NCBI GenBank assembly: GCA_964421245.1
Contig: CAYQVW010000001.1
Span: 242,712-306,711, forward strand
Direction: 5' to 3'
Origin: an uncultured bacterium
Lineage (GTDB): Bacteria; Margulisbacteria; WOR-1; XYC2-FULL-46-14
Length of the DNA stretch: 64,000 nt
The stretch's first letter is position 1. Each line of letters opens with the position of its first letter. This document shows positions 2,820-54,918 of the stretch, piece by piece. Both the position numbers and the translations under genes were made by a program. The notes under the pieces are model-generated. The model worked only from the letters and a program-made list of their open reading frames with translations. It did no database searches and had not been told where the DNA came from.

Positions 2820-2823
2820 TCAA

Positions 2824-3420: not shown

Positions 3421-4460
3421 TAGAAAAAATGACAAATGACAAATTAAAAATTAAAAATGATGGAGGGATTGTATTAGTAACTGGTGGAGCAGGGTATATA
3501 GGGTCAGTTCTGGTAGAAGAATTAGTCAGGCAGGGAAAAAGTGTTAGAGTTTTTGATAAGTTGTATTTTGGGGATCAAGCCCTAAATGAGGTTAAAAGCA
3601 AAATTGAAATTATTCAGGGGGATGTTAGAGTCTTTCCAGAAGAAGTATTGAATGATGTTTCTTCTGTTATTCATCTTGGCTCCCTTTCTAACGATCCGAC
3701 TGCCGATTTTGACCCAAAAGCGAATAAAGAGATAAATTTTGAAGGAACTATGCGAGTTGGCGAAGCCTGCAAGAAAAAGGGGATTCAAAAGATGACCTTT
3801 GCTTCTTCTGCTGCTGTGATCGGTTTTCATGTTGATGATATTGCCAATGAAGAGTTTGAGCCAAATCCTCAGTCAGAATATGCACAATCAAAATTAGATG
3901 CGGAGAACGGTTTAATATCACTAGTTTCTGACAAATTTAGTCCGGTTATTATCAGACAGGCCACAGTTATTGGTTTTTCACCCAGGATGCGTTGGGATTT
4001 AGTCGTTAATACTATGACTAAAGATGCTTTTTCTAAAAACAAGATATCAGTTTTTTGTGCTGGAGATAATTGGCGTCCCTTGGTTCACGTAAAAGATGTG
4101 GTTGATGCCCATTTAGCTTGTTTGGAGGTTGATTTGAAAAAGGTTGCTGGGCAGATTTTTAATTTGGTGCATAAAAATTATCAAATTTTGGATTTGGGAA
4201 AAGAGGTTCATGCTATTTTGAAATCATATCTTCCTGTTTCTCTTGATATACAAAAGGGGGACAAGGAGTCACGAAGCTATCGAATTTCTTCAAATAAAAT
4301 AAAAAAACTAGTCGGTTTTGAGGCCAAGAGAACAGTTGAAGCGGCAACCATGGAGATTTATAATTTACTTAAGGCGGGTAAATATACCGACTTCTCAAAT
4401 CCGATTTATTATAATATTGCCTGGATGAAAAAATTAGTAGAAGCAGGGAAAAAGATATGA
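3414..4460 (+). CDS. NAD-dependent nucleotide-sugar epimerase/dehydratase (short-chain dehydrogenase/reductase (SDR) family)
   Basis: VLVTGGAGYIGS Rossmann motif and YAQSK catalytic YxxxK. An alternative start at ATG 3429 (MTNDKLKIKN) lies inside the 32-nt repeat shared with 29224. Confidence 0.88.
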   Translation: MVVEKMTNDKLKIKNDGGIVLVTGGAGYIGSVLVEELVRQGKSVRVFDKLYFGDQALNEVKSKIEIIQGDVRVFPEEVLNDVSSVIHLGSLSNDPTADFDPKANKEINFEGTMRVGEACKKKGIQKMTFASSAAVIGFHVDDIANEEFEPNPQSEYAQSKLDAENGLISLVSDKFSPVIIRQATVIGFSPRMRWDLVVNTMTKDAFSKNKISVFCAGDNWRPLVHVKDVVDAHLACLEVDLKKVAGQIFNLVHKNYQILDLGKEVHAILKSYLPVSLDIQKGDKESRSYRISSNKIKKLVGFEAKRTVEAATMEIYNLLKAGKYTDFSNPIYYNIAWMKKLVEAGKKI

Positions 4461-5308: not shown

Positions 5309-6393
5309 AGAAAGTTGCAATCGTTCACGATTATCTAAATCAATTTGGTGGGGCGGAACGCGTGGTTGCTGCTCTTCATGAAATTTTTCCTGATGCACCA
5401 ATTTTCACCTCCATCTATAATGCAAGAAAAATGCCACCGGCCTTTCAAAAAATGGATATTCGAACCTCTTTTATGAAAAAATTGCCTTTTATTTTGAAAA
5501 AATTCCGCCACTATTTTTGGCTCTATCCACGTGCCTTTGAAAGTTTTGGTCTTAGTGAATATGATTTAATTATTTCTTCAAGCAGTGCATATGCAAAAGG
5601 AATAATAAAACGAGAAGATGCGATTCATGTTTGTTATTGTCATAATCCCATGCGATTTGCTTGGCGCTATGACGATTATATTAAAAAAGAAAATATCCCC
5701 TGGATAGCTAAAAAGATATTACCTCTTTTTTTAAACTCATTGAAAAAGTGGGATTTGAAAAGAAATAAAGGTGTTGATTTTTTTATTGCTAATTCCTCAG
5801 TCGTTAAAAACAGGATAAGTCAATTTTATGGTCGTGATTCAAAAATCATTCATCCCCCAATTGATATTGATAAGTTCTCCTTAGGAACAAATCAGGAAAA
5901 TTATTTTTTAATTGTTTCCAGATTAAATTATTATAAAAGGCTTGATATTGCGGTTGATGCTTTCTCAAAGTTGGGATTACAATTAAGGATTGTTGGGGAG
6001 GGACCAGCAAAGCCTGACCTAATAAAAAAAGCAGCTACCAACATTGATTTTCTGGGTAATGTAGATGATAATAGGTTAAGAGATCTTTATGCAAAGTGTC
6101 GCGCGTTAATTTTTACTGAAGAAGCTGATTTTGGAATGGTTCCGCTTGAAGGTGCGGCATCTGGGAGGCCGACTATTGCATTTGGGAGGGCTGGGGCGCT
6201 TGAAACCATAAAAGATGATGTTAGTGGTCTATTTTTTGATGAACAAACCCCAGAATCTCTAATAGAAGCGATAAAGCGTTTTGAAAAGATGAAATTTGAT
6301 AAAAATATAATTAGACAACATGCCGAGAAATTTAGTAAAGATGCTTTCAAAAGAAAGATAAGGGAGTTTTTAAGTGAAATCAAAGCACTTTAA
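5304..6393 (+). CDS. Family 4 (GT-B fold) glycosyltransferase
   Basis: VAIVHDYLNQFGGAERVV near the N-terminus and EEADFGMVPLEGAASGRPTIA (the EX7E-type GT4 motif). A probable GTG start at 5304 overlaps the upstream TGA (GTGA). The track ORF starts earlier, at ATG 5251, inside the upstream gene. Confidence 0.82.
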
Positions 6394-8617
6394 CATAATT
6401 ATTGAAGTTTTATTTTTATCTTTGCTCTTTTTGGCGGCAATTATCTTTGATCGCCGAATTGGAATTGTTTTTTCTCTAACCAAAGCAACCACCATCCGCT
6501 TTTTTTCGATTTTAATCTTGAGTGTTTGGGCAATTAAAATTTTAATTTTCAAGGAACATAAATGGGTTCGCTCTATTCTTGATTGGCCGGTTGCAACATA
6601 TGTTTTGTCATGTCTTATTGCCACAATATCGTCAATTCATGTATATATTAGTTTTTTTGGTTTTTATGGACGTTTCGAGGGATTTATAACTCTTTTTAAT
6701 TTTGCGCTTTTGTTTTTTGTTGCCACAAATTATATAAATAATATTAAAGCTGTTAAGCGTCTTATGGTAACGGTTTGCTCCGCCTCGGTTGTCATGTCAA
6801 TTTATGCAATCATACAGAGGAAGGGAATTGATCCTTACGCCTGGGGAGGGGTTGTTACCTGGCATCGGGTTATTGCAACAATTGGTCAGCCAAATTTTTA
6901 TGCAGCGTACGCAGATATGGCCTTTTTCTTAACTTTTATTTTGTTTTTGTTTCCCAAATCCAATAAACCATTTGAGCTTAAATCACTACTGCCTTCTGTT
7001 TATTTTATCGTTCCGATATTAACATTTGTTATAATGATTTATAATTTGGGAACATCTGATGTAATTGTTTGGTATTTAGGATTTCTTCTTTGTTCTGCTT
7101 TCACGGTGTTATTTGCTTATAAACATGACGAGTTGCCCCAATTATTAATAGACGCAATTTTTGGAATTAGTTTGATTATAATGTACACTGGGCTTTTTTA
7201 TACCCAAAGCCGTGGTGGTTTTATCGGTTTTTTTGCAGCTTTTTCATTGTTTTTTATTATTGGTCCTAAAAGAATTATTTTTGATAATTGGAAGAAAATT
7301 GGGCTTCTTTTCCTAGCCCTTGCAATTGTTACCGGGGTTACAATTTCTGACCCGCAGTTTTCCCTCTTTTCAAGAATGACCGGAGAGATTGAGGTTGAAG
7401 ATGTTCAAAAAGGAGATTCCCCTAAAATAGAATTTCAAGGTGCGGCAGGATCTCGTGGAGAGACCTGGAAAAGTGGATTTAATGTAATTGTCGATTTCCC
7501 GTTTTTTGGAATTGGTCCAGAAGTATTAAAGATGCTTTTTCCTCGCTATGAAACAAAACTTTTTCGTTTTAAAGAGGCCTTCCATGTAAAGCAAGATCGT
7601 ATGCATAATGAGACGCTAGACGTGCCGGTAACTCGAGGCCTGGTTTCTTTCTTTGCTTACATATTAGTATTGTTTTTGGTATTCAAAAAAGGATTTAAAA
7701 CGGTAACGAAGTCAATTTCTCAGTCAAATAAACTAATTGTAGCTGGTTTTTTAGCTGCAATCACGGCATATCTGGTTCAAAATCAGTTTAGTTTTGGTGT
7801 GGTTGCTATAACTTCATTGTTTTGGGTAATGTGGGCGGTTGTAATTAAGTCAGATACTTGTCTTTTGGATGAGCCGGAGCAAGTAGAAGAAAAAACATTG
7901 ACGATAGACAATATACCTTGGCTTTTGGTTGCTTTAATTGTATTAATTACTTTTTCATTATTATATGTTTCATCAATACCGTTTAACGCGGATAAAGAAT
8001 TCAAAATGGGTAAAACCCTTGCTTCGGTAAAACGTTTTTCCGAAGCCGTGGGTTTTTATGATAAGTCTCTGGCTATTCAACCATTTGAGGGTGGGCCAAT
8101 AACCCATAAAGGGATTAGCTTGATTAATTTGGCGGCTCAGTCAAAACCCGAACAGAGGGCGAAAATCCACAAAGAAGCCCTTGATATTTTAAGATTTGGA
8201 AATTTGGTCGATCCATACAATGCCGATAATTTTTATATTTTATCAAGGATTCATTTTGTTAGCAATAGGATAGGCTTGGCACTTGACGCTGCTAATAAGG
8301 CATTGAAAATTGATCCTTATTATGCAGAAGTATACCTAGTCCTGGCCAATATTGCAAAAAAGCAAAAGCAATATAAAAAGGTCCAATTATATTACAAAGA
8401 GGCTAACCGAATTAACCCAAATATTCTTGAAGCAAAGGAGCAGGTTATCTGGCAATTGATTGATGCTGGTGAATTGGATCAGGCCTTTCAAATGGTACAA
8501 GAAATTATTATGACTAATCCAAAGCATCTAAGTGCCTACCGGGCTCTTGGGATAATATATAAAAAAATGGGAAAACATAAGGAAGCCCAAGAGGCTTTTG
8601 ATGTGCTTAAACAATGA
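6374..8617 (+). CDS. O-antigen ligase/polymerase-like (Wzy_C) polytopic membrane protein with a C-terminal TPR-repeat domain
   Basis: At least ten hydrophobic helices, the Wzy_C-type motif YTQSRGGFIGFF, then about 230 aa of TPR-like repeats (KALKIDPYYAEVYLVLANIAKKQKQYKKVQLYYKEANRINPN...). Confidence 0.72.
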   Translation: MKSKHFNIIIEVLFLSLLFLAAIIFDRRIGIVFSLTKATTIRFFSILILSVWAIKILIFKEHKWVRSILDWPVATYVLSCLIATISSIHVYISFFGFYGRFEGFITLFNFALLFFVATNYINNIKAVKRLMVTVCSASVVMSIYAIIQRKGIDPYAWGGVVTWHRVIATIGQPNFYAAYADMAFFLTFILFLFPKSNKPFELKSLLPSVYFIVPILTFVIMIYNLGTSDVIVWYLGFLLCSAFTVLFAYKHDELPQLLIDAIFGISLIIMYTGLFYTQSRGGFIGFFAAFSLFFIIGPKRIIFDNWKKIGLLFLALAIVTGVTISDPQFSLFSRMTGEIEVEDVQKGDSPKIEFQGAAGSRGETWKSGFNVIVDFPFFGIGPEVLKMLFPRYETKLFRFKEAFHVKQDRMHNETLDVPVTRGLVSFFAYILVLFLVFKKGFKTVTKSISQSNKLIVAGFLAAITAYLVQNQFSFGVVAITSLFWVMWAVVIKSDTCLLDEPEQVEEKTLTIDNIPWLLVALIVLITFSLLYVSSIPFNADKEFKMGKTLASVKRFSEAVGFYDKSLAIQPFEGGPITHKGISLINLAAQSKPEQRAKIHKEALDILRFGNLVDPYNADNFYILSRIHFVSNRIGLALDAANKALKIDPYYAEVYLVLANIAKKQKQYKKVQLYYKEANRINPNILEAKEQVIWQLIDAGELDQAFQMVQEIIMTNPKHLSAYRALGIIYKKMGKHKEAQEAFDVLKQ

Positions 8618-25866: not shown

Positions 25867-28350
25867 ATGCCAGAAGTTACCCCGATGGTAAAACAGTACC
25901 AAGAAATCAAATCTTGCCATAAGGACTCAATCCTTTTTTTTCGCCTTGGTGATTTCTATGAGATGTTCTACGATGATGCAATTTTAGCTTCTCGTGAGCT
26001 TGAGTTAACCCTAACAGGCAGGGGCAAGAATGAAAACCGCATGCCGATGTGCGGAATCCCTCATCATGCTTCAAAAAATTATATCCAAAAGCTAATAGAA
26101 AGAGGGTATAAAGTTGCAATCTGTGAGCAGGTAGAAGATCCATCGATTGCAAAGGGTATTGTAAAAAGGGATGTTATAAAAATCTATACCCCTGGAACAG
26201 TCATTGAATCATCAATGCTTTATGAAAAGACCAATAACTATCTTATGGCAATTGCCTTTGAAAAAAACAAATATGGCATTGCCTACGTAGATGCTTCGAC
26301 TGGGGAATTCAAAATTACTCAGGTTGATTCAGAACATAAAGTTAAAGAAGAGATAGATCGGATAAATCCGTCGGAATTGTTGATTTCGGATATGATAGAT
26401 GCTGGAAACCGCGAGGTTTACTCGCAGGTTTCCAAAAGTGTTTTCGCAGACAAATACGACTTCGAGTCCGCTTCCGAAAAGCTCAAAGAACACTTCAAAA
26501 TATCTAATTTAGAATCGTTTGGAATAGAAGATTTTAAAGTAGGAGTTGAAGCGGCTGCTGCGATCATAGATTATCTTTCTGATACACAAAAAACATCTCT
26601 CGATCATATAAATAAAATTCAACCATATAGAGTGGGGGAATTTATGTTTATCGATTCCGCTACTCGTCGCAATCTTGAATTAGTGCATACAGTAAAAGAT
26701 AAAGGCTATAAAGGAAGTTTGCTTTGGGTTCTTGATCAAACAAAGACCTCAATGGGTTCTCGCATGCTTCGTTCTTGGGTCTTACAACCACTTTTGAACG
26801 TTTCAGAAATACAAAATAGACTTGATGCTGTAGAAGAATTATATACTTCTTCAATTCTTAGGGAAGATTTGGGAAGTAATATTAGGGACATTTCAGATAT
26901 AGAAAGGTTAACGGCTAAAGTTGCTGCTGCAAGTTGTAATGCGCGGGATTTAATTGCGCTTAAAGAGTCTTTACAAAAATTACCGGCTATTGTTGAGACT
27001 TTGAGAAATTGCAGTACAAAGTTGCTAAAAATAGACATTGATATGGAATCCGTGAGACAAATTTCTGAATTTATCCAGAGATCGGTAGTTGATGATCCTC
27101 CTTTCCAAATCAAAGAGGCCGGAATAATCAAAATTGGCTATAATCCAGAACTCGATGAAATTAAAAAAGCAGCGAGTGGTGGAAAACAATGGATTGCAGA
27201 ACTTGAAACCAAAGAGCGCCAAAGAACCGGTATTAAATCGCTTAAAGTCAGCTTCAACAAAGTCTTTGGTTATTACATAGATGTAACTAAATCAAATTTG
27301 TCTCAAGTTCCGGATGATTATATTCGAAAACAAACGCTTGTAAATTCTGAGCGATATATTACTCCAGAATTAAAAGAGCAAGAATCCTTAATTTTAAATA
27401 CAGATGAAAGACTTAAAAAGATGGAGTATGAGGTTTTTTGTGAGGTCCGGGACGAAGTTGCGAAATATACCAAGTCATTACAGCTTATTGCTTTTTCATT
27501 GGCCCAGTTGGATTGTATTCTTTCGTTGGCAGAAGTTGCGGTTTCGAATAATTATTGTAAGCCTATTGTTAATGGAGAAGGGGCAAGGGTCAAGTTGCAA
27601 GGGTCAAGGCATCCAGTGGTAGAAAAGACACAGGGTGAACATCGGTTTGTGCCAAATGATGTGGAATTAAATGAAAAACAAAGCTTTTTGTTAATTACCG
27701 GACCTAATATGGGTGGAAAATCTACCTATATGCGTCAAGTTGCCTTAATTTGTTTAATGGCACAAATTGGATCATATGTTCCAGCAGATAAAGCTGAATT
27801 AATCCCAGTAGATCGTATTTTTACTCGCATTGGCGCAATGGATGATATATTTTCTGGTCAATCGACTTTTATGCTAGAGATGACCGAGACAGCAAACATA
27901 ATAAACAATGCAACTGATAAAAGTTTAATTATTCTTGATGAGATTGGTAGGGGAACCGCTACCTTTGATGGAATGTCGATTGCAGCAGCAGTTGCAGAAT
28001 ATATTCATACAAAAATCAAAGCAAAAACTATGTTTGCGACCCATTATCATGAAATAACCCAGCTAGCAGATAAGTACGATGCTATGCAGAATTTAAATGT
28101 TTCAGTAATCGAGAAAAATGATCATATTGTCTTTTTGCATAAGATTAAAGAGGGAACAGCTGATAAATCATATGGGATTCAGGTAGCAAAATTAGCCGGT
28201 TTACCAGAGTCAGTTATTTCTCGTTCAAAAGTGATTTATAACACGCTTGAGATGGTTGAAAAAGGATTTGGAGAGACACAGAAAAAGAGGTTGAAAAAGG
28301 GGAAAGGAAACGGTAGAATAGCGGATCAAGAACAGATGGGATTATTTTAG
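25867..28350 (+). CDS. mutS: DNA mismatch repair protein MutS
   Basis: GPNMGGKSTYMRQVALI (Walker A), STFMLEMTETANII, DEIGRGTATFDG, and the N-terminal mismatch-binding FYEMFYDDA. Confidence 0.97.
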   Translation: MPEVTPMVKQYQEIKSCHKDSILFFRLGDFYEMFYDDAILASRELELTLTGRGKNENRMPMCGIPHHASKNYIQKLIERGYKVAICEQVEDPSIAKGIVKRDVIKIYTPGTVIESSMLYEKTNNYLMAIAFEKNKYGIAYVDASTGEFKITQVDSEHKVKEEIDRINPSELLISDMIDAGNREVYSQVSKSVFADKYDFESASEKLKEHFKISNLESFGIEDFKVGVEAAAAIIDYLSDTQKTSLDHINKIQPYRVGEFMFIDSATRRNLELVHTVKDKGYKGSLLWVLDQTKTSMGSRMLRSWVLQPLLNVSEIQNRLDAVEELYTSSILREDLGSNIRDISDIERLTAKVAAASCNARDLIALKESLQKLPAIVETLRNCSTKLLKIDIDMESVRQISEFIQRSVVDDPPFQIKEAGIIKIGYNPELDEIKKAASGGKQWIAELETKERQRTGIKSLKVSFNKVFGYYIDVTKSNLSQVPDDYIRKQTLVNSERYITPELKEQESLILNTDERLKKMEYEVFCEVRDEVAKYTKSLQLIAFSLAQLDCILSLAEVAVSNNYCKPIVNGEGARVKLQGSRHPVVEKTQGEHRFVPNDVELNEKQSFLLITGPNMGGKSTYMRQVALICLMAQIGSYVPADKAELIPVDRIFTRIGAMDDIFSGQSTFMLEMTETANIINNATDKSLIILDEIGRGTATFDGMSIAAAVAEYIHTKIKAKTMFATHYHEITQLADKYDAMQNLNVSVIEKNDHIVFLHKIKEGTADKSYGIQVAKLAGLPESVISRSKVIYNTLEMVEKGFGETQKKRLKKGKGNGRIADQEQMGLF

Positions 28351-28363
28351 AAAGATAAACTTT

Positions 28364-29227
28364 ATGAAAAAGATATTTTCGCTATTATTCATATTGTTGG
28401 TGGTTGTTTCTGTCTCTTCTGCCCAAGAAATTCCTCAAAATTTTATTGGTGGTGGTGGATCGACTAATTCAACTTCTAGCACCAATTCTTCTTCTGGCTC
28501 TGCTGGAGGATCTGCTATTGGTAAAATGACCAATAGCGGCTACATTATGATTGCCGGTTTCCAAGCAGGTCTTATGTCCACCACTTATTCAACTGGATCC
28601 GCAGTTGCAAGCAGCGTTGTCATTGACAATGTTCTTTTTAATGGGTATGAAAAGTTAGATGACGATTATGTTGAAGCAAGTCCAAGGGTTCTTGCAACAA
28701 TAACTTCTTTAGCATCAACAATTAGTCCAGAAGTTAGCTATGTTGAAGTAAATGGAACAAAGACCTATTTTTCAGGTCTAACATCTCCTTCGGGTTTTAG
28801 TGGGACTTCGTTTATCTATGATGCGACATTCTCGGATGGGGATAATACTTTTAGCATTGTCGCATATGATCGAAGTGGCAATTCTGAAACTTATTCTCGC
28901 ACTCTAAAGGTTGATATCGGAGATATTAGCGCAACTTCGGTTTATATATTTCCAAATCCATATAATCCAAATAACGGTGTTGGTAAGATTGCCTATAGTT
29001 TGAATAAACAGGATACTGTTTCAGTCTATATCTTTAACGCAATTGGACAGCTTGTTTATAAGAGAGAATATTTGTCCGGATGGGCAGGGGCAAGGGTTGG
29101 CTATAATGAAGTTGATTTTAATGGAGTATCCGATTTTGGTCAAACTCTTGCGAACGATCTTTACTTCTTGAGAATAGTTTCTGGTGGTAAACCGATTGGG
29201 AGAGCTAAGATAGCTATACTCAAATGA
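28364..29227 (+). CDS. Secreted Gly/Ser-rich protein with a T9SS-type C-terminal sorting domain
   Basis: Signal peptide MKKIFSLLFILLVVVSVSSA. The C-terminus YIFPNPYNPNNGVGKIAYSL...VSVYIFNAIGQLVY...NDLYFLRIVSGGKPIGRAKIAILK is a Por_Secre_tail-like pattern. Confidence 0.65.
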   Translation: MKKIFSLLFILLVVVSVSSAQEIPQNFIGGGGSTNSTSSTNSSSGSAGGSAIGKMTNSGYIMIAGFQAGLMSTTYSTGSAVASSVVIDNVLFNGYEKLDDDYVEASPRVLATITSLASTISPEVSYVEVNGTKTYFSGLTSPSGFSGTSFIYDATFSDGDNTFSIVAYDRSGNSETYSRTLKVDIGDISATSVYIFPNPYNPNNGVGKIAYSLNKQDTVSVYIFNAIGQLVYKREYLSGWAGARVGYNEVDFNGVSDFGQTLANDLYFLRIVSGGKPIGRAKIAILK

Positions 29228-30774
29228 CAAATGACAAATTAAAAATTAAAAATATTATTTTTTGCGGTTTCTTTGTTGTAAGTTGTTTGTTGTTAGTTGT
29301 TAGTCAAAGCGAAGCGAGTCTTGATCCAATGAAATTAGGTGTCGGCGCTCGATCGCTGGCAATGGGCAGAGTATCAGCCGCAATCGATGGTGATATTAAC
29401 GCAATGTTTGTAAATCCAGCCAATGCAGGAGCTCTTTCTGATTGGGGACTAACCTCAATGTATACCTCTCTTATGGAGGGAGATATTGCCTATACGTTAC
29501 TTGGATATGGGAAGAGAGTTGGAATGGCCACTCTGGGCTTGTCTTACATGGGTACAGGAGTTTCTGGATTAGAAACTACTCAACGAGATGCTAATAACCG
29601 TATTGTTACGACCGGAACTACCTTTAATTATTCTAACTACGTTGCACAGCTTGTAATTGGGTTACCTGCAAATTCTGCTGGAATTGCAACTGGTGCAACA
29701 ATTAAAATGTTTAATAAATCACTATCTGATCAAGCTGGAGGGACTGGTTCTGGTTATGATCTGGATTTAGGTGTTTTGTGGAAACCAAAAAATAATCTAA
29801 CTCTTGGATTGTCTCAACAAAACACTTTGCCAGCATCAATGGGAGGGAAAATCGTTTGGGGTACTGGAGCAGAAGAAGGAATTTTATTTAATACGAAATT
29901 TGGTTTGGCTTTTAAACCTAGAAATTTTCTATTGGTTGCTTTAGATGGTGATTTTGCGCAGAATAAACCACTTGTTTTTCATGGCGGATTAGAATGGACA
30001 GTGAGAGATTTTTTAGCTTTTCGTGGTGGACTTGAACAAGTTCCAACCTCAAAAACTACTTCAACCAACAATTATTCTTTAGGATTAGGGTTAAAAATAA
30101 GAAATATTAATTTTGATTATGCTTATTATCTTGACAATGTTTTAGCAGCTAATTCTACTCATTACTTTACATTATCAATTGTTCCAAGAAAAGAAATTAA
30201 GAAAAAAGTTGTAAAACCTCCTTATAAACAAATGTTTTCTGATGTTGCAAAGGATTACTGGGCAAGGGTAGCAATTGAGCATTTGGCTACAAAAGGAATT
30301 ATTAATGGCTATACGGATAAAACATTTAGACCGACTAGAGCATTAACCCGAGCCGAGCTTTGTACCTTGCTTATTAAAGCTAAGAAAGTTCCACTCGCAA
30401 ATATTGAAGGGGAGAATGTCTTTACAGATGTTAAGAGTTCGCATTGGGCAGCGCGCTATATTAAAAATGCTGCTAATTATAAATTAATCTCTGGATATCC
30501 AGATGGTACATTTAAACCGAATAAACCTTTGAGTAGAGAAGAAGCAATGAAAATCCTAGTTTTATTTGATAAAAAGCCTTTGATAGACAAAGTTGTCTTT
30601 CCATATGGAGATATTCCTTCTGGTCGATGGTCAACTCCATATATTTCAACTGCCTATTCAGCTGGCTGGCTAACTTTTATAAAAGAAAAGGCCTTTTATC
30701 CGAAAAAGAGCTTTACTAGAGCAGAAGCAGCATTTATATTGTACTTGACTTCTTTTGTTCAGAGTTTAAAATAG
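29224..30774 (+). CDS. Outer-membrane FadL/PorV-like beta-barrel (N-terminal about 300 aa) fused to three C-terminal S-layer-homology (SLH) domains
   Basis: Signal peptide MTNDKLKIKNIIFCGFFVVSCLLLVVSQSEA. N-terminal hatch-like motif GVGARSLAMGRVSAAIDGDINAMFVNPANAGAL (cf. FadL [26 protein letters not shown]). Three SLH repeats: FSDVAKDYWARVAIEHLATKGIINGYTDKTFRPTRALTRAEL; FTDVKSSHWAARYIKNAANYKLISGYPDGTFKPNKPLSREEA; and a degenerate third ending FTRAEAAFILYL. Confidence 0.7.
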   Translation: MTNDKLKIKNIIFCGFFVVSCLLLVVSQSEASLDPMKLGVGARSLAMGRVSAAIDGDINAMFVNPANAGALSDWGLTSMYTSLMEGDIAYTLLGYGKRVGMATLGLSYMGTGVSGLETTQRDANNRIVTTGTTFNYSNYVAQLVIGLPANSAGIATGATIKMFNKSLSDQAGGTGSGYDLDLGVLWKPKNNLTLGLSQQNTLPASMGGKIVWGTGAEEGILFNTKFGLAFKPRNFLLVALDGDFAQNKPLVFHGGLEWTVRDFLAFRGGLEQVPTSKTTSTNNYSLGLGLKIRNINFDYAYYLDNVLAANSTHYFTLSIVPRKEIKKKVVKPPYKQMFSDVAKDYWARVAIEHLATKGIINGYTDKTFRPTRALTRAELCTLLIKAKKVPLANIEGENVFTDVKSSHWAARYIKNAANYKLISGYPDGTFKPNKPLSREEAMKILVLFDKKPLIDKVVFPYGDIPSGRWSTPYISTAYSAGWLTFIKEKAFYPKKSFTRAEAAFILYLTSFVQSLK

Positions 30775-30786
30775 AGGAGGGAAAAA

Positions 30787-31887
30787 ATGAAAAAAATATT
30801 ACTCATTACTTTTTACTTGTTACTCTTTACTCCAATAGCATTAGCTGTTCCATCACAAATGAATTATCAGGGAGTATTAAAAAATAGCTCGGGCGCTTTA
30901 GTTAGTAGTGAAGTGTCGATGAAATTTGCAATTTACGCTGCAGCCACGGGTGGAGGTGCACTCTGGTCAGAGACTCAATCGATTGTGACAGTAGAAGCCG
31001 GATTATATTCTGTACAACTTGGGTCAGCAACTGCACTTTCTCATTCGTTTTTTGATGGAAGTACGAGATATCTTGGGGTGGCTGTTCCAAGTGGTGGAAC
31101 CGAATTAACGCCACGTATTCCATTGATAACTGTTCCTTATGCATTTCGCGCAGGAACTGCAGAATCAGTTGGAGGAATCGATGCCTCTGGTCTTGTTCAG
31201 TTGGGGCCTTCTAGTATGCAAACAACCTCGGCGGCAATTGGCGCGGATATTAGTTCTACTAATGTAGCTGGAGTTGGAATACGTGCTACTGCTGAGGGCT
31301 TTGGTGTTATAGGAATAGCTTCGTCGGCTCTTTCTTATGGTGTTTGGGGAAGTGGGCTTACCGCTGGAGTCTATGGTATTGGTACTACTGGAGATGGGGT
31401 ACAGGGTATAAGTACTTCTGGAGATGGGGTTTATGGGTCTAGTACATCTGGTTTCGCTGTTAATGGTATAGCACCCGGAGTAAATGGTAGAGGTATTTTT
31501 GGGAGGGCTACCCATACAACTGGAAACAACTTTGGAGTAATTGGTATTAGTAGTAGTACGGGTGGATACGGGGTATCGGCGCAAAATACTGCTGCAAGTA
31601 ATCAGGTTTCTCACGCTGGAGCTGCATTAAAAATTACTGGAATGATAATAGCGGATTCTGGGGACGGATACTGTTTTGGAGATGGTACGATTGCAAATGC
31701 TAGTGATACTGTAACTGTTGCCAACAAGGCCTGTGATACTACCAGTTTGGTATTGGCAAGTTTGATCGAAAATCCAGGAGCAGCTATTAGTATAAGAGAT
31801 ATTACTCCCTTAGCTGGAAGCTTTGTTGTGACATTAACTAATCTTACAGGAAATTCAACGGATTTTAGATATTTAATAATTAATTAG
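30787..31887 (+). CDS. Secreted glycine-rich repeat surface protein
   Basis: Signal peptide MKKILLITFYLLLFTPIALA. The central region is made of degenerate G-x-x-G repeats (GVYGIGTTGDGVQGISTSGDGVYGSSTSGFAVNGIAPGVNGRGIFG...). No family recognised. Confidence 0.55.
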   Translation: MKKILLITFYLLLFTPIALAVPSQMNYQGVLKNSSGALVSSEVSMKFAIYAAATGGGALWSETQSIVTVEAGLYSVQLGSATALSHSFFDGSTRYLGVAVPSGGTELTPRIPLITVPYAFRAGTAESVGGIDASGLVQLGPSSMQTTSAAIGADISSTNVAGVGIRATAEGFGVIGIASSALSYGVWGSGLTAGVYGIGTTGDGVQGISTSGDGVYGSSTSGFAVNGIAPGVNGRGIFGRATHTTGNNFGVIGISSSTGGYGVSAQNTAASNQVSHAGAALKITGMIIADSGDGYCFGDGTIANASDTVTVANKACDTTSLVLASLIENPGAAISIRDITPLAGSFVVTLTNLTGNSTDFRYLIIN

Positions 31888-31930
31888 CTTTAAGTTTGAA
31901 TTTCCTCTTAAAATAAGCTAAAATGTTTCA

Positions 31931-32070
31931 GGAGATCCGGGGATTCGGAAATCAGGGACTGGAGATCAGGATATTAGGAGATCAGGGATGGGACAATCTA
32001 CCTAATATTCGTCCCTAATTTCCGGATAGCCCAATGCTCTGTCCCAAATATCCCAATATCCGGATAACCT
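31931..32070. promoter_or_regulatory. Dyad-symmetric, repeat-rich leader upstream of dnaB: three direct GGAGATC(A/C)GGGAT units plus nested inverted repeats and the 10-bp palindrome TATCCGGATA
   Basis: GGAGATCCGGGGAT (31931), GGAGATCAGGATAT (31961) and GGAGATCAGGGAT (31977). ATTCGGAAATCAGGGACT (31942-31959) is the reverse complement (15/18) of CGTCCCTAATTTCCGGAT (32011-32028). An inner pair GGATATTAGGAGAT / ATCTACCTAATATTC surrounds a 13-nt loop. TATCCGGATA lies at 32057-32066. Confidence 0.5.
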
Positions 32071-32076
32071 AAAAAA

Positions 32077-33417
32077 ATGCCAGAAGATCGTATTCCACCG
32101 CAAAATTTAGTAGCAGAACAATCTGTTTTGGGCGCAATGTTAATCGACAAAGCGGCCATTGCCAAATCAGTTGAAAAATTAAAACGTGATAGTTTTTATC
32201 GTGATGCCCATACTTATATCTATGAATCTATCCTTGAACTGTTTGATCGTGGAGAGCCGGTTGACCTTGTAACTGTAACAGAAAATTTAAGAAAAAACGG
32301 AAAACTAGATGCAATCGGTGGTAGTGTTTATATCTCTGATCTAATTAATTCTGTTCCAACCTCAGCTAATGTCGAGTATTATGCCAAGATTGTAGAAGAA
32401 AAGGCAATTTTGCGTCGTCTGATTGAAGCCGGAACTCATATTGTTCAAGAAGCTTTCCAAGAGCCAGAACATGTTGATCAGGTTCTAGATCGTGCCGAAA
32501 AAAGCATCTTTAATATTGCACTTAGAAAATCAAGTGAGGGATTTAGCAAGATTGATAATATTCTAAAAAGTGTTCTTGATCGAATTGATAGTCTCTATGG
32601 CAAGAATCAAAATATAACTGGAATTCCGACCGGCTTTACTGACTTAGACAATATGACCGCCGGATTCCAAAATTCCAATTTGATTATTATTGCCGCCCGT
32701 CCATCGGTCGGAAAAACTGCATTGGCACTTAACATGGCCCAGAATACCGCTATTCGTTTTAACGTTCCGGTTGCGATCTTTTCTCTTGAAATGTCAAAGG
32801 AACAATTAGCTCAAAGAATGCTCTGCTCCGAAGCAGAAGTCAATGCGCTGCAGCTTAAAACTGCAACTTTGCCCGATCGTGGATGGAAAAAACTGACCAA
32901 AGCTCTTTCAAAACTTTCTGAAGCACCGATCTTTATTGATGATTCGTCTTCTATTACCTCAACTGAGATCAGGGCAAAGTGTAGGAGATTAAAGATTGAT
33001 CGTGGACTTGGAATGGTAATAATTGATTATATGCAGCTTATGCAAGGTAGGGGTGGACGCAACGAAAACCGTGTTCAAGAAATATCGGAAATTGCTAGAT
33101 CCCTTAAGACCTTAGCTCGTGAATTGGATATCCCTGTAATTGCTTTGTCGCAGCTCTCTCGAGCAGTTGAACAGAGACCAGATAAAATCCCAAGACTTTC
33201 TGATTTGAGAGAATCGGGAGAAATTGAACAGACTGCTGACGTTGTTATGTTTATTCATCGTGATGATTATTATAATCCACAGTCAGAACGTGGTAATGTT
33301 GCCGAATTAATAATGGCAAAACAGAGAAATGGTCCGGTTGGTGTGGTTGAATTAGTATTTAGAAAAGAGATTACGAAATTCTGCAACAAAGAGAGCCGCT
33401 ACGAGCACGTTGGATGA
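32077..33417 (+). CDS. dnaB: Replicative DNA helicase DnaB
   Basis: GFTDLDNMTAGFQNSNLIIIAARPSVGKTALALN (Walker A), SLEMS, DYMQLM, and QLSRAVEQRPDK...LSDLRESGEIEQTADVV. Confidence 0.96.
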   Translation: MPEDRIPPQNLVAEQSVLGAMLIDKAAIAKSVEKLKRDSFYRDAHTYIYESILELFDRGEPVDLVTVTENLRKNGKLDAIGGSVYISDLINSVPTSANVEYYAKIVEEKAILRRLIEAGTHIVQEAFQEPEHVDQVLDRAEKSIFNIALRKSSEGFSKIDNILKSVLDRIDSLYGKNQNITGIPTGFTDLDNMTAGFQNSNLIIIAARPSVGKTALALNMAQNTAIRFNVPVAIFSLEMSKEQLAQRMLCSEAEVNALQLKTATLPDRGWKKLTKALSKLSEAPIFIDDSSSITSTEIRAKCRRLKIDRGLGMVIIDYMQLMQGRGGRNENRVQEISEIARSLKTLARELDIPVIALSQLSRAVEQRPDKIPRLSDLRESGEIEQTADVVMFIHRDDYYNPQSERGNVAELIMAKQRNGPVGVVELVFRKEITKFCNKESRYEHVG

Positions 33418-43228: not shown

Positions 43229-44071
43229 TTAGTTGGGGCGTAGGAAAAGAATATCGAAATAAGCCAAAAGACGATCAAGAAATTTTTTTCTTTTGAAAGG
43301 GAAGGATAGAATTAGAAGGGGAATAAAAGCTAAAATAAATACAAAAAGTAGAATTCTATAAATTAACCAAGCAAAAGCACCATAGTGTTTTCTGCAGAAG
43401 TATAATCCACCCTTGAATCCTTCAACAAATAGACGACGATTAAAAGTCCTTTTACTACTATAGCCACCATAATGGATCACCTCTGATTGTGGGCAGAAGT
43501 ATATTTTCCATCCAGCCTTTCTAATACTCATACACCAATCTAGGTCATCATTGTAAAAGAATAACTTTTCATCCATCATTCCAACTTTTTCAATAACCTC
43601 TCTCCTAACCATTAAACAGGCCCCGATTATAAAATCAACCTCAGCTGGTTGTTTTGCATTGTAGAATTTCTTTCCAAATATTCCGCCCTGTCTTTGAATG
43701 GTTCCATCGATATTTAGAAGTTTGGCGCCGCATGCACCGGCTTTTGGATTATGATTCATAAAACTAACCATTTTATCAAAAGCAGAATCTTTGGTGATAG
43801 TATCGTCGTTTAACAGCATTTGATAACGTCCGTTGGCTATTCTTAATCCTTGGTTTGATGCTTTTATAAAGCCCATATTTTTATCATTATTAATTAAATG
43901 AACCTCGGGGTATTTTCTTCTTACCATCTCCTGTGATCCATCGGTTGATGCGTTGTCTACAACAATTATTTCAAAGATGACCTTTTTGGTGTTTTTATAG
44001 ATAGAATCAAGGCATTGATCGAGAATCTTTTTATTGTCTGTGTTTACTATTATAATTGATAAGTCAAACAT
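43229..44071 (-). CDS. Family 2 glycosyltransferase with a C-terminal membrane anchor
   Basis: LSIIIVNTDNKKIL...EIIVVDNASTDGS...LLNDDT (the DxD region), then two hydrophobic C-terminal segments. Confidence 0.88.
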   Translation of the reverse strand: MFDLSIIIVNTDNKKILDQCLDSIYKNTKKVIFEIIVVDNASTDGSQEMVRRKYPEVHLINNDKNMGFIKASNQGLRIANGRYQMLLNDDTITKDSAFDKMVSFMNHNPKAGACGAKLLNIDGTIQRQGGIFGKKFYNAKQPAEVDFIIGACLMVRREVIEKVGMMDEKLFFYNDDLDWCMSIRKAGWKIYFCPQSEVIHYGGYSSKRTFNRRLFVEGFKGGLYFCRKHYGAFAWLIYRILLFVFILAFIPLLILSFPFKRKKFLDRLLAYFDILFLRPN

Positions 44072-48712: not shown

Positions 48713-49942
48713 ATGATCAATCCTCGCATGATTAAGATATCTGATTCTCTTGTGTGGCTAATCCCAATTGTTTTAGTTTTAGTCGGATTATTATTGATTG
48801 CCTCAACAACTTTTAATGCAGAACAAAAAGCAGAGCGCGATCCTTTTTCCTATGTGAAACGACAGGCGGTCTCATTTTCAATCGGTTTAGTTCTAATGGT
48901 TTACTTTGCATTTGTAGATTATAAGAAGCTAAGAAGCCTAGCTCCATTACTTTACATATTGATGCTTTTTATTCTTGTTCTTGTTCTTTTTCTAGGAAGA
49001 AGTTCCTTGGGGGCACAGCGTTGGATTATGCTTGGACCCTTTTCGTTTCAACCCTCAGAAATTGCAAAATTATTGCTAATTATTTCTTTAGCAGCATATT
49101 TTAGTTCCAGGAAAGAAAAGATTGGAATGTTTAGGGCCTTAGCAATTGCGGGCATTCCCTTTTTACTGATTTTTAAACAACCAGATTTAGGAACTGGATT
49201 AGTATTAATTTCAATTTCGCTTGGAATGTTAATCTGGGGAAAGGCTTCTCCAGTATTGCTTACAATGATTTTTTCTCCTCTGGCTTCTATTTATTTTCGT
49301 CAAAACCTATATCTTTGGATTACCTATATTATTATTCTATGGGCCGTTCTATATTTTTCACGTGTCAAGATTGCTGACATGCTTTTAATTCTTGGAATAA
49401 ATATTGGTGTTGGTATCGCTCTTCCTATTCTATGGGGATTATTAAAGCCTTATCAGCAGATGAGGGTCTTGTCATTTTTAAATCCAGCAATGGATCCACA
49501 TGGGATTGGGTATCATACATTGCAATCAAAGATTGCGGTTGGGGCTGGCGGGTTTTTGGGAAAAGGTTTCATGAGTGGGACTCAAACCCAACTACAATTT
49601 GTACCAATTCAAAGCTCTGATTTTATCTTTTCGGCAATTGCCGAGGAGTTTGGTTTTATCGGATCTTTCTCTATTCTTTCTTTGTTTTTGATTTTATTAT
49701 GGAGAATCTTTAAAATTGCGGAAGGAGCTTATGATTATTTTGGATCAATGTTAGTTGCCGGAATTGGAGTAATGCTAATGTTTCATTTTTTTGTTTCAAT
49801 CGGGATGAATATTGGTGTTCTTCCAGTAGTTGGGATACCGCTACCGTTTGTCTCTTTTGGAGGAACTTCACTTATTGTAAATTTGGTTTCAATTGGTATA
49901 ATACAAAGTGTCGCAATGCGACGCCAGAAACTTATTTTTTAA
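48713..49942 (+). CDS. rodA: SEDS-family peptidoglycan glycosyltransferase (RodA/FtsW-type; likely rodA, being outside the dcw block)
   Basis: PSEIAKLLLIISLAAYF, KQPDLGTGLVLISI, and C-terminal GIPLPFVSFGGTSL. Confidence 0.85.
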   Translation: MINPRMIKISDSLVWLIPIVLVLVGLLLIASTTFNAEQKAERDPFSYVKRQAVSFSIGLVLMVYFAFVDYKKLRSLAPLLYILMLFILVLVLFLGRSSLGAQRWIMLGPFSFQPSEIAKLLLIISLAAYFSSRKEKIGMFRALAIAGIPFLLIFKQPDLGTGLVLISISLGMLIWGKASPVLLTMIFSPLASIYFRQNLYLWITYIIILWAVLYFSRVKIADMLLILGINIGVGIALPILWGLLKPYQQMRVLSFLNPAMDPHGIGYHTLQSKIAVGAGGFLGKGFMSGTQTQLQFVPIQSSDFIFSAIAEEFGFIGSFSILSLFLILLWRIFKIAEGAYDYFGSMLVAGIGVMLMFHFFVSIGMNIGVLPVVGIPLPFVSFGGTSLIVNLVSIGIIQSVAMRRQKLIF

Positions 49943-49943
49943 A

Positions 49944-50165
49944 ATGAAAAATGTAACAAAGATAAAGGGAATTATCGATAGAGTAGAGGATGGCTTTGCA
50001 GTCATTCTTTTGGGCCATGATGAAGAGGTTATGGTTGAACTGCCCGATTGCTATCTACCCCCAGAAATACAAGAAGGGGATATTGTAACCTTTAAACTTG
50101 AAAAGCACAGTAGAAAAACAAAAGAAGCTAAGAAAAAAGTTGCGAAGATGATAAAGGCGCTGTAG
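49944..50165 (+). CDS. Small DUF3006-like protein
   Basis: MKNVTKIKGIIDRVEDGFAVILLGHDEEVMVELPDCYLPPEIQEGDIVTF resembles the DUF3006 pattern. Start reassigned to ATG 49944, immediately after the rodA stop; the track ORF begins at 49908 inside rodA. Confidence 0.55.
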   Translation: MKNVTKIKGIIDRVEDGFAVILLGHDEEVMVELPDCYLPPEIQEGDIVTFKLEKHSRKTKEAKKKVAKMIKAL

Positions 50166-50191
50166 GGTCAAGTCGCGACTTGACCCTACAG
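50160..50191. terminator. 32-bp perfect palindrome (CTGTAGGGTCAAGTCG|CGACTTGACCCTACAG) between convergent genes, probably a bidirectional terminator hairpin
   Basis: Perfect 16+16 inverted repeat, GC-rich in an AT-rich context. It contains the TAG stop of the plus-strand gene (50163-50165) and the TAG of the minus-strand gene (complement of 50186-50188). No U-tract on either side. Confidence 0.6.
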
Positions 50192-51415
50192 CTTAAATTC
50201 TGCTTCTACTTGTCCGGAAGCCTCAAAAGTTTTGTCTTTTACAGAAATAATTACTTTTTGACATTTAACCCAACGCTCTTTTTCTTTTAAATAAACATTA
50301 TTAGTTAATGTTATAGTTTCATTCTTGTCAGAATAATCCGCCCTTTCTGCTTTTGCCTTTTTGTCCACCTCGGCGAGCCTGCCTCGCGGCAAGGCGGGCC
50401 CTCGGCGAGACGGGCCTTTCTGCCTTACTATTATATTCCCAAAAGCCTTATAATCACCGTTTATGGTTGAAAGAATCAAGGTGTCCGAGCTTTGCAGCGT
50501 TTTATTTTTTAGTAGTTCTTTTATTTTTTTGTCTTTTAGCTTTTGTGCTGTCTTTTCCTTAATTAAGGCACTTCCTCTTTCAATGATTGTTTCAACGGAT
50601 CCAGACAGAGTGATCTCTTTTTTTATCTTATTATATATTGCCTGATCGGCTGTGCAAACTTTTTTTCCTTGAATTACCTCAACCTCCGATGAGATACTTA
50701 CATCTTTATTTTCATCGATATACATTTGAAGATAACCAGATTTTATTCTTGTTTTTTCTTTTCCTGAAATAGTAGATCTAATATTTTTTTGTGCCAGGAT
50801 TTTTTCGGTTTTAGCTCGATACTCTAATGCCCGGCAGGTTAGGCTAACATCTTCTCTCTTGATTCTTATATTGTCTGTTAGCCAGGCAATTTCTTTGTCA
50901 TGATTTATTCTCATGTTATCGCTAAATAATGTTGTTTTTTTATCAATTAATCTTATGTTCCCAGAGAGGGAAGATTCTTTTAGATCTGGATTGTGGCTAA
51001 AAAAATCAGCATTGATGCTTGAGTATTTTCTTTTTCCTTTATTTCTTTTACTGGTAATTGATATTTGTGCTTTGGCTTTTTTGGCTTCAACCCTTTTTGA
51101 TCCACGAAAAGCAGAAACTTGTTCGGCAGTGAAATTTTTTATCAGGAGTTCTCCATCTTTATAAAATGTTCCTTCAACAACGTCTTTGAGATTGGTTATA
51201 TCTTTATTTTTTCCAACCCAGCCGGTTTTGGCGGAAAATTCCCAAACTTTTTTTCCATCGGTCCTTCCAACAATCGATGAAGCATCAAACTCAAGAATTC
51301 TATCAATTCTTTTGGTTGTCTCAACCTTGGGAAGTGTAAAGACAAAAATCAAGATAAGCATCACAAATGAGGCTAGGGCAGCAAAAAGAATGGGTTTCCA
51401 AGGAGCTTGTTCCAT
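50186..51415 (-). CDS. Membrane-anchored periplasmic protein with OstA-like beta-jellyroll repeats, a putative LptC/LptA-type lipopolysaccharide transport protein
   Basis: N-terminal transmembrane anchor PILFAALASFVMLILIFVF. Repeated LptA-like segments (TLFSDNMRINHDKEIAWLTDNIRIKRED; KVCTADQAIYNKIKKEITLSGSVETI). It contains a GC-rich hairpin element at 50368-50409. An extended -10 TGcTATAAT lies just upstream on the minus strand (complement of 51424-51432). Confidence 0.45.
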   Translation of the reverse strand: MEQAPWKPILFAALASFVMLILIFVFTLPKVETTKRIDRILEFDASSIVGRTDGKKVWEFSAKTGWVGKNKDITNLKDVVEGTFYKDGELLIKNFTAEQVSAFRGSKRVEAKKAKAQISITSKRNKGKRKYSSINADFFSHNPDLKESSLSGNIRLIDKKTTLFSDNMRINHDKEIAWLTDNIRIKREDVSLTCRALEYRAKTEKILAQKNIRSTISGKEKTRIKSGYLQMYIDENKDVSISSEVEVIQGKKVCTADQAIYNKIKKEITLSGSVETIIERGSALIKEKTAQKLKDKKIKELLKNKTLQSSDTLILSTINGDYKAFGNIIVRQKGPSRRGPALPRGRLAEVDKKAKAERADYSDKNETITLTNNVYLKEKERWVKCQKVIISVKDKTFEASGQVEAEFKL

Positions 51416-54665: not shown

Positions 54666-54691
54666 TTCGTCTATGTTAAACTATCCATAAT

Positions 54692-54907
54692 ATGACAACA
54701 TTTTTAATTGGTGTACAATTTATTTCCGCAATTTGTTTGGTGATTACGATCCTTCTACATACCGCAAAAGGGGAGGGGCTTGGTGGAATTGGTGGTGCGG
54801 CAAAGCTTTTTGGAACTCCTAAGGGGCTTGAACAGGGCCTTGATAAAATAACTACTACCTTTGCTGTCTCTTTTATTGTCGTTTCAATACTTTTGGCAAT
54901 ATTTTAA
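54692..54907 (+). CDS. secG: Preprotein translocase subunit SecG
   Basis: 71 aa with two transmembrane helices and the Gly-rich loop LLHTAKGEGLGGIGGAAKLFG. Confidence 0.82.
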   Translation: MTTFLIGVQFISAICLVITILLHTAKGEGLGGIGGAAKLFGTPKGLEQGLDKITTTFAVSFIVVSILLAIF

Positions 54908-54918
54908 GGAGTTTTATA

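Follow-up and report, generated by a model that had tools for sequence, protein, structure and literature searches.

The subject of this report is a long imperfect palindrome that lies immediately upstream of dnaB, the gene for the replicative DNA helicase, in a window of 64 kb (the whole stretch of 64,000 nt that was analysed) from the genome of an uncultured bacterium. The DnaB relatives place the host among the Margulisiibacteriota/Saganbacteria (WOR-1), with best species-level matches that are 74-77% identical and closest metagenome relatives that are 83-85% identical. The palindrome, 149 nt in length (31926-32074), stands in a gap of 189 nt between two + strand genes, dnaB itself (32077-33417) and a gene encoding a secreted glycine-rich repeat protein (30787-31887). 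It had been singled out in an earlier note as a repeat-dense leader that might be a DnaA-box-like or other regulator-binding array, a structured 5' leader RNA or the remnant of a mobile element. We show here that it is a convergent (head-to-head) pair of G-rich short-tandem-repeat arrays, that it separates a conserved promoter from the dnaB start codon in this genome but not in its relatives, and that similar elements stand between unrelated genes in other bacteria and in phages.

The whole of this region folds as one nested hairpin of about 49-55 base pairs. Separate outer and inner inverted repeats had been described here, and these repeats are real, but they are parts of the single structure. 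The direct repeat GGAGATC[AC]GG occurs at 31931, 31961 and 31977, and TATCCGGATA (32057-32066) is a perfect palindrome, both as the earlier note had it; the outer inverted repeat, given there as 18 bp, was recovered in a repeat search as 17 nt of 88% complementarity (31943-31959/32011-32027). An inner repeat of 14 bp around a 13 nt loop was not reproduced exactly, and the inner pairing found consists instead of an 8 bp perfect pair, ATATTAGG/CCTAATAT, together with an 8 bp apical stem closing a loop of 17 nt. The unit from which the element is built is an octamer, GGRDATYN. Three octamers and a GGGAC(T) hexamer form a block of 30 nt, and there are two such blocks in each arm, the G-rich arm (26 G, 8 C) lying 5' and the C-rich arm (20 C, 8 G) lying 3'. 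The 5' arm consists of its two blocks followed by the GGGAC of the apex (Table 1), while the 3' arm, read as its reverse complement, follows the same grammar (GGTTATCC GGATATTG GGATATTT GGGAC...), so that its outer block is the reverse complement of three octamers plus GGGAC.

The 30 nt period was found in several ways. Tandem Repeats Finder reported it for the 5' arm (1.9 copies, 82% matches, score 81), a repeat search gave 77% identity between 31931-31960 and 31961-31990, and the self-identity of the window arms at a lag of 30 is 0.66 (5' arm) and 0.60. A pattern of two units, GGRNATYNGGRNATY, has five matches in the 64 kb, all of them within the hairpin, against an expectation of 0.21. An identical copy stands in each of four further contigs, every one from a different sample (one JGI assembly and three Logan assemblies of sequencing runs), and the hairpin is therefore no assembly artefact. 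The JGI contig that corresponds to the window is Ga0118720_1000003, and its strain is also present in SRR8062331, SRR8062333 and SRR9166041. An 11 nt direct repeat lies near both ends of the element (Table 1), its left copy 7 nt outside the palindrome and its right copy 6 nt inside it; because of this asymmetric placing we do not read it as a target-site duplication. A coding tandem repeat of the same period, CTGGAGATGGGGTACAGGGTATAAGTACAT, is present just upstream in the gene for the glycine-rich secreted protein (31388-31451, 2.1 copies of 30 nt), and we consider the shared period to be probably a coincidence.

Table 1. Features of the dnaB upstream region (positions in the 64 kb window)
Feature	Position	Strand	Basis or remark
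-35-like hexamer TTGAAT of the predicted dnaB promoter	31896..31901	+	Promoter scan TTGAAT-17-TAAAAT, 9/12 positions
11 nt direct repeat: left copy ATAAGCTAAAA, right copy ATAACCTAAAA	31913..31923 and 32064..32074	+	10/11 identical
-10 region GCTAAAAT	31917..31924	+	Homologous to G[GC]TA[AG]AAT of Margulisbacteria dnaB genes
31-aa open reading frame inside the hairpin	31923..32018	+	Gene-finder call in L001, L003 and L004
Complete palindromic element	31926..32074	.	Minimum free energy RNA fold, best-ranked in the window
5'-arm block 1: GGAGATCC GGGGATTC GGAAATCA GGGACT, four G-tracts	31931..31960	+	Sequence, direct repeat, Tandem Repeats Finder, unit parse
5'-arm block 2: GGAGATCA GGATATTA GGAGATCA GGGAT	31961..31989	+	Sequence, repeats, unit parse
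Apex: GGGAC (31990-31994), 16 nt loop (31995-32010), GTCCC (32011-32015)	31990..32015	.	Sequence
3'-arm inner block, degenerate: TAATTTCC GGATAGCC CAATGCTCT	32016..32040	+	Pairs with block 2 in the fold
3'-arm outer block: GTCCC AAATATCC CAATATCC GGATAACC, contains TATCCGGATA	32041..32069	+	- strand block-pattern match; pairs with block 1
A-rich single-stranded linker TAAAAAA, hairpin base to dnaB start	32070..32076	+	Without Shine-Dalgarno motif
dnaB, replicative DNA helicase, 446 aa	32077..33417	+	Pfam DnaB 8.8e-35, DnaB_C 1.2e-111

Folding of the transcribed strand as RNA, which had been proposed as a check, gave -54.6 kcal/mol (z -3.6) for 31926-32074, and the - strand gave -61.4 kcal/mol (z -5.5). 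When 150 nt windows were slid along the entire 64 kb, for which the mean energies were about -28 (+ strand) and -24 (- strand) kcal/mol with a standard deviation of about 6.5-7, the hairpin ranked first on either strand; its description as the most GC-rich intergenic segment holds only marginally (0.402 for the gap, against 0.401 for the gap at 21192-21518). With parameters for single-stranded DNA, in contrast, the fold is unexceptional (-22.6 kcal/mol, z -2.0), 7 of 200 shuffled sequences folding equally well. A terminator scan found no intrinsic terminator at the hairpin on either strand: it is followed by TAAAAAAATG, without a U-tract, and the sole site reported lies upstream of it on the - strand (31821-31804). 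No canonical G3+N1-7 quadruplex motif is present on either strand, and each block contains one G2-type motif of GG tracts with loops of 4-6 nt. There was no Rfam match at the gathering score in the whole 64 kb, and at an E-value of up to 10 the only overlap in 31800-32200 was a chance one with mir-3913 (13.9 bits, against a gathering score of 100). The tRNA/tmRNA scan likewise returned none.

The position of the hairpin relative to the dnaB promoter became clear from the relatives. The window promoter motif, AAATAAGCTAAAAT with TTGAAT at -35 (31896-31924), has a counterpart in 13 of 15 relatives, in which G[GC]TA[AG]AAT ends 7-11 nt before the dnaB ATG, often with TTGAAT or TTGAAA 17 nt upstream; in L086, L014, L006 and L012 a TTGAAT, TTGAAA or TTGATT hexamer occupies the same aligned place. 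Judged from sequence, the spacing in the relatives implies a leaderless or nearly leaderless dnaB mRNA. In the window 6 nt separate the end of the -10 from the point at which pairing begins in the hairpin and 152 nt separate it from the ATG, and in an alignment of the dnaB upstream regions the -35 and -10 are kept while about 150 extra nucleotides appear in the window only. The predicted transcription start falls at about 31930-31931, at the first paired bases, and the hairpin would then constitute essentially the whole 5' leader of dnaB; it would also be part of any transcript reading through from the upstream surface-protein cassette. It ends 6 nt before the dnaB AUG, and no Shine-Dalgarno motif (GGAG, GAGG or AGGA) was found within -18 to -5 of the start. 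About half of the genes of this genome are without such a motif, and leaderless-type spacing between the -10 and the ATG is common in it: a TATAAT-like -10 box lies only 6-10 nt before the start codon in many genes of the window (1101-2093(-), 2136, 12519, 25867, 43229-44071(-), 48713, 50186-51415(-) and 60957). Given these boxes and those of dnaB in the relatives, leaderless mRNAs seem to be common in this Margulisbacteria lineage.

The hairpin is absent at dnaB from all 15 relatives examined (12 Margulisbacteria species and 3 closer relatives). Gene order around it is also variable. In the closest relatives L085 and L087/L088, mutS is directly followed by dnaB; in L086 a surface-protein cassette that includes an S-layer homology (SLH)-domain protein stands between them; and in the window (25867-32076) the cassette is present in rearranged form, its 366-aa protein being 35% identical to the first cassette protein of L086. 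Two close relatives lack the cassette and a third has it rearranged, so that the interval between mutS and dnaB is a local hotspot of gene-order change. Further features were noted in L005 (about 2650-3000), L009 (about 60-410) and L013 (1-170): a small conserved membrane open reading frame (ORF; MSF[AS]Q...KPPKYPGFGQ) lies just upstream of dnaB in two relatives, and L005 and L013 carry other low-complexity hairpins whose C-rich arm comes first and which represent a different repeat type.

Elements of the same build were sought in viral and metagenome contigs with a block pattern of three GGDDATYN units followed by GGGAY, which matched at 3 viral loci and at least 120 metagenome loci; without the GGGAY end the pattern matched at 108 viral loci. 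Among the matches listed, 38 clusters have at least three units on each strand and were classed as hairpin-type elements. All 38 are intergenic and gap-filling, with 10-30 nt left to the ORF on either side, and they stand in contigs whose GC content ranges from 21 to 71%; both neighbours are visible for 21 of them, and about 16 of these sit between co-directional genes. Their polarity is invariant, since all 38 have the G-rich arm first and none the C-rich arm, and the hairpin-type cases from the scan with no GGGAY end in its pattern are, without exception, oriented in the same way. Many share the arm plan of the window element, with units of 8, 8, 8, 6, 8, 8, 8 and 5 nt, GGGACT(A)/(T)AGTCCC punctuation and a GGGAC...GTCCC apex; the sharers of the arm plan include L189, L188, L122, L137, L171, L156, L120, L205, L208 and L209, and the apex recurs in L188, L189, L209, L112 and L122. 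Autocorrelation pooled over 47 arms, from which the window was excluded, peaks at lags of 8, 16, 22-23, 30 and 38, with a value of 0.45 at lag 30 against 0.28 at lag 32. The unit logo across the family is GG[G/A/T][A/T/G]AT[T/C][A/T/C], and in the folds pairing is seen in about 100% of cases at unit positions 1-2, in about 80% at 5-7 and in about 60% at 3, 4 and 8, which are the variable positions. An idea that GGAG units serve as Shine-Dalgarno decoys was rejected, as GGAG starts only 13 of the 187 family octamers. No particular companion gene was found at the loci inspected.

Among the matches listed, L189/L317 is the closest look-alike: it aligns collinearly with about 140 nt of the window element, and its end is identical to the last 11 nt of the window outer block, CCGGATAACCT. 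Its alignment score is 61, against 16 +/- 2 for shuffled sequences; other elements of the same architecture score 40-53, so L189 is no outlier. The L189 locus is unrelated to dnaB; a small basic ORF precedes the element there, and a reductase gene faces it in convergent orientation. NrpR is typical of methanogenic archaea, and a reading of the contig as archaeal, suggested by its NrpR and geranylgeranyl-reductase domains, was rejected: because the homologues of its NrpR are named Margulisbacteria or Saganbacteria, we assign the contig to the Margulisbacteria. Such homologues of the NrpR-type nitrogen repressor (531-1508 of L189/L317, in L189 coordinates) are widespread in Margulisbacteria and Saganbacteria genomes. 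In the phage contig L089, which encodes portal and capsid proteins, three octamer-repeat hairpins stand in the structural operon (3350-3470, 5735-5834 and 7588-7660), and the viral contigs L247 and L251 from the same sample also carry arrays. The densest cluster among the matches listed, in L147 (1433-5257; the L159 sequence is the same), comprises at least four repeat hairpins, some in tandem, within 4 kb around a two-component-system operon, and heptamer hairpins of the GGGGATT/CCCCAAT type were found in L125 and L162. Within the 64 kb, GGAGATCAGGGAT was searched with 2 mismatches allowed, TATCCGGATA with 1, and the two-unit pattern as well, and all matches fell in this locus or were chance ones. 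The window and the adjoining 8-9 kb on each side, about 81 kb of this genome, contained no second element. The earlier note had made conservation of the repeats in relatives and further copies elsewhere the point on which its proposal would turn; the repeats are not kept at dnaB in the relatives, but they have many look-alikes elsewhere.

Repeats of comparable build are the GGGAATC repeats of Xanthomonas, which number about 185 in a genome (5 Mb), are intergenic in 89-93% of cases, for the most part between aligned ORFs, and have a counterpart in the G-rich heptamers of Nostoc, GGGGA(C/T)T (Rehm et al., 2015, PMC4692102). They were defined as tandem 7 nt units, (GGGANTN)n, with at least one exact GGGAATC; their modal length is four units, a preference that was linked to G-quadruplexes, and in 70-75 cases per Xanthomonas genome two nearby convergent arrays are able to form stem-loops (PMC4692102). 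They are mostly transcribed and keep the same flanking genes while their length varies, and no function was found (PMC4692102). The window element has in common with these repeats tandem G-rich units with a conserved GG...AT, an intergenic location and no tie to a gene class. It also has their orientation. Those repeats mostly have the G-rich strand shortly downstream of a stop codon or, in antisense, no more than 50 nt upstream of an ORF; the window element lies between two + strand genes, its G-arm begins 44 nt after the stop at 31887 and its C-arm ends 7 nt before dnaB. As in the convergent GGGAATC pairs, which always have the G-arm first and are capable of forming a stem-loop, its G-arm precedes its C-arm, and its blocks, like theirs, hold four G-tract units, here three octamers and GGGAC(T) in each 30 nt. 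The two types differ in the length of the unit, which is 8 nt (GGRDATYN) rather than 7, with no exact GGGAATC in 31926-32074; in the G-tracts, which in the window are mostly GG and fall short of the four or more tracts of three or more G that define a quadruplex; in the arrangement of each window arm as two 30 nt blocks with GGGAC(T) punctuation; and in the host, a low-GC Margulisbacteria genome with a low copy density in the 81 kb or so covered.

A second comparison is with the STRR hairpins of filamentous cyanobacteria, for which, in the case of those between hupS and hupL, roles in transcript stability or translational coupling have been suggested (PMC2670836). These too are intergenic hairpins of short tandem repeats inside operons or leaders, but their units are of 7 bp (for example CCCCAAT/GGGGATT), whereas the window element, in Margulisbacteria, has octamers and a 30 nt super-period; it is a functional analogue of the STRR hairpins and not a member. 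STRR sequences are said to have been described originally by Mazel and co-workers in 1990, and the Margulisbacteria are, we assume, placed near the cyanobacteria. It is in our judgement probable that the window element should be classified as an octamer variant of the GGGAATC/GGGGA(C/T)T repeat pairs and STRR hairpins.

Other known structures resemble it less closely. The REP, BIME and REPIN elements of proteobacteria (REPINs, PMC3116915) are likewise extragenic palindromes that fill intercistronic gaps with long hairpins, but REPs consist of a conserved, imperfect palindrome of about 20-35 nt that recurs in hundreds of nearly identical copies and is associated with RAYT (Y1) transposases. The window element has no conserved core beyond its 8 nt unit, and neither near-identical copies nor a RAYT gene were seen in the available DNA and the scanned neighbour genes (about 5% of the genome of about 1.7 Mb). 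REP sequences of Escherichia coli are transcribed and can stabilize upstream mRNA. Among single structures, 5'-terminal stem-loops of the ompA type stabilize mRNA, and the intercistronic RNase III sites of phage T7 are long imperfect duplexes. With these the window element shares a stem-loop whose start coincides with the predicted transcription start or lies no more than 1-2 nt from it, and a long imperfect duplex between cistrons, as is found also in the phage structural operon of L089; the ompA and T7 structures differ in being single-copy and gene-specific and in having no internal tandem repeats.

In favour of the suggestion that the region is an array for DnaA or another dedicated regulator controlling dnaB there are TTATCCGGA (32059-32067, - strand), which matches 7 of 9 positions of the DnaA-box consensus TTATCCACA, the proximity of a replication gene and three GATC sites in the element. 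Matches of this quality occur at the rate expected by chance (272 in the 64 kb window, against 245 +/- 14 expected), the element contains one box with two mismatches and none with one or fewer, and GATC, with 254 sites throughout the window, is uninformative. The DnaA-box clusters of oriC and of the dnaA promoter thus share with the element only its replication-gene neighbour and a single 7-of-9 match; the element has no cluster of good boxes and lies downstream of the promoter rather than over it, is not kept at dnaB in any of the 15 relatives, and belongs to a type that flanks unrelated genes, including phage capsid genes, with a unit, GGRDATYN, that is no DnaA box. We regard this explanation as effectively refuted. 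Hardly more credible is the view that the region forms a separate gene, whether the 31-aa ORF or, with a ligand or target of its own, a small RNA or a leader of riboswitch type. The ORF is called by gene finders in three assemblies, but the call is probably spurious: the start codon of the ORF overlaps the -10 box and is preceded by no Shine-Dalgarno motif, and the predicted peptide is a translation of the repeat. The strong RNA structure might be taken to favour a small RNA or riboswitch, but there is no terminator to delimit a discrete small RNA, no Rfam family is matched even at an E-value of 10, and a plain hairpin with periodic mismatches offers no ligand pocket and is not conserved with dnaB. 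The proposed structured 5' leader RNA fares better, in that position and fold would agree with it; a regulatory RNA specific to dnaB is unlikely, given the absence of the element from the relatives and from Rfam.

Two further explanations, both of which we consider unlikely, deserve more weight. The element could act as DNA, as a cruciform, as weak two-tetrad G-quadruplexes on each strand or as an array for an oligomerizing DNA-binding protein, and so modulate promoter clearance, transcription, replication or local genome stability. Both strands show the same motif with the G-arm first, folding is not biased towards the sense strand, conservation is greater in the unit motif (the GG and AT positions) than in complementarity between the arms, and each 30 nt block has exactly four G-tracts, matching the four-unit preference of the GGGAATC repeats (Rehm et al., 2015, PMC4692102). 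Neither strand, however, has a canonical G3+ quadruplex motif, there being only GG tracts with loops of 4-6 nt, the single-stranded DNA fold is unexceptional and frequent mismatches disfavour extrusion of a cruciform, the 8 bp spacing is out of phase with the DNA helix, and no candidate binding protein is linked to the loci scanned. The remaining possibility is a non-autonomous mobile element (of MITE or REPIN type), a palindrome of about 140 nt duplicated into new intergenic positions through a trans-acting transposase and, in this lineage, inserted between the dnaB -10 and ATG, with any effect on dnaB incidental. Its presence here and absence at the same site in relatives, the discrete length and arm plan kept across many contigs, the collinearity and the shared 11 nt end with the element of a second Margulisbacteria genome, which occupies a different kind of locus there, the 11 nt direct repeat near both ends and the several copies within 6 kb in L147/L159 would all suit a mobile element. 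The features expected of a MITE, namely terminal inverted repeats, a target-site duplication and several similar genomic copies, are nevertheless missing, for the palindrome spans the element from end to end, the direct repeat is not placed symmetrically to it, no repeat flanks L189 and the 81 kb or so covered contain no second copy; nor does a transposase adjoin the element at the loci inspected. Copies differ at nearly all variable unit positions and their arms have been homogenized separately (in L089, one arm has GGTGATTA and the other, as reverse complement, GGAGATTA), which points to slipping tandem repeats rather than transposed copies, and the Xanthomonas repeats stay between the same genes while varying in length (PMC4692102). 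Of the proposed mobile-element remnant there remains membership of a dispersed class of palindromic repeat elements; target-site duplication, conserved termini and a second copy (in about 81 kb) were not found.

We favour an action at the RNA level because the element lies downstream of a conserved promoter, has no terminator, folds exceptionally only as RNA and belongs to a family whose hairpins stand inside operons, including a phage late operon. The combined statement, that this is an octamer hairpin and that it acts through RNA, appears to us slightly better than an even proposition; the specific role outlined here is more doubtful and is put forward tentatively. The dnaB mRNA would open with a stem-loop of about -55 kcal/mol, followed after 6 nt by an AUG lacking a Shine-Dalgarno motif. 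The element would be a generic stem-loop, 5'-terminal in a transcript or intercistronic, and would serve to protect mRNA ends or to set where they fall, possibly through processing of the RNase III type. It would also damp the access of ribosomes to dnaB (the stem ends at -7 of the AUG) and would separate dnaB from read-through out of the upstream surface-protein genes. By analogy with the ompA and T7 structures, 5'-end protection by a stem-loop at +1 and the use of a long imperfect duplex as an RNase III substrate are plausible. In this explanation, the best that we can offer, the hairpin would not be specific to dnaB and would not bind DnaA.

Several observations weigh against this account and should be set beside it. 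The strict definition of Rehm et al. does not cover the element, which has 8 nt units, no GGGAATC and no G3 quadruplex. It is also rare in the DNA covered (1 element in about 81 kb of this genome and 2 in about 215 kb of Margulisbacteria DNA); Xanthomonas has one per 27 kb or so. As regards action through RNA, the antisense strand of the window element folds better than the sense strand, and among family members between co-directional genes the sense strand is the better in only 7 of 17, so that there is no sign of selection on the sense RNA specifically. The variable unit positions of the window arms are mostly non-complementary (about 2 of 9 paired in the outer block, by hand count), from which it follows that the pairing stems from the unit consensus and not from compensatory change. 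The closest relatives do without the hairpin, and any function that it has is therefore dispensable. Finally, both the transcription start and the RNA-level role are predictions from sequence.

Some other structures in the window were recorded in passing. Four intergenic gaps of 168-327 nt (21192-21518, 19249-19488, 18427-18594 and 54666-54918) have predicted folds of -42 to -66 kcal/mol and no Rfam match. On the - strand, antisense folds of about -54 kcal/mol occur at 24700-24900 inside a 1294-aa ORF, which has 6 and 12 nt repeats there (AGAACCAGCACC). The gap that separates the convergent genes 48713-49942 and 50186-51415 holds a perfect 34 nt palindrome, GCTGTAGGGTCAAGTCG/CGACTTGACCCTACAGC (50159-50192), which may act as a terminator or bind a protein.

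The invariant polarity and the 30 nt geometry kept across very different genomes would be of particular interest if a factor that reads them exists. A bolder interpretation, which we rate as improbable, is that the octamer hairpins are discrete and functionally constrained elements of intergenic punctuation rather than mere products of slippage, with a conserved partner that reads their geometry. Its basis is the fixed plan (two 8+8+8+6 blocks per arm, a GGGAC...GTCCC apex and the G-arm 5'), which recurs across contigs with 21-71% GC, in two or more Margulisbacteria genomes and in phages. Such a partner might take the form of an RNase III-like signal for processing or insulation, or of a protein gauging the 30 nt period. 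If this were true, an ancestrally leaderless dnaB mRNA would have been converted to one with a processed or protected leader; if the elements are only a by-product of replication slippage, the finding is an ordinary one. Convergent GGGAATC pairs and STRR hairpins were already known, and have been without a known function since their description. What is new here is the octamer variant with its strict 30 nt blocks and invariant polarity, its occurrence in Margulisbacteria and in phage structural operons, and a fold that is exceptional as RNA and not as DNA, features that narrow the hypotheses for the GGGAATC and STRR repeats. For the locus itself, the idea of DnaA control of dnaB gives way to a concrete anatomy, a hairpin between a leaderless-type promoter and the dnaB start, which offers a natural test case for the effect of a repeat hairpin on an essential gene.

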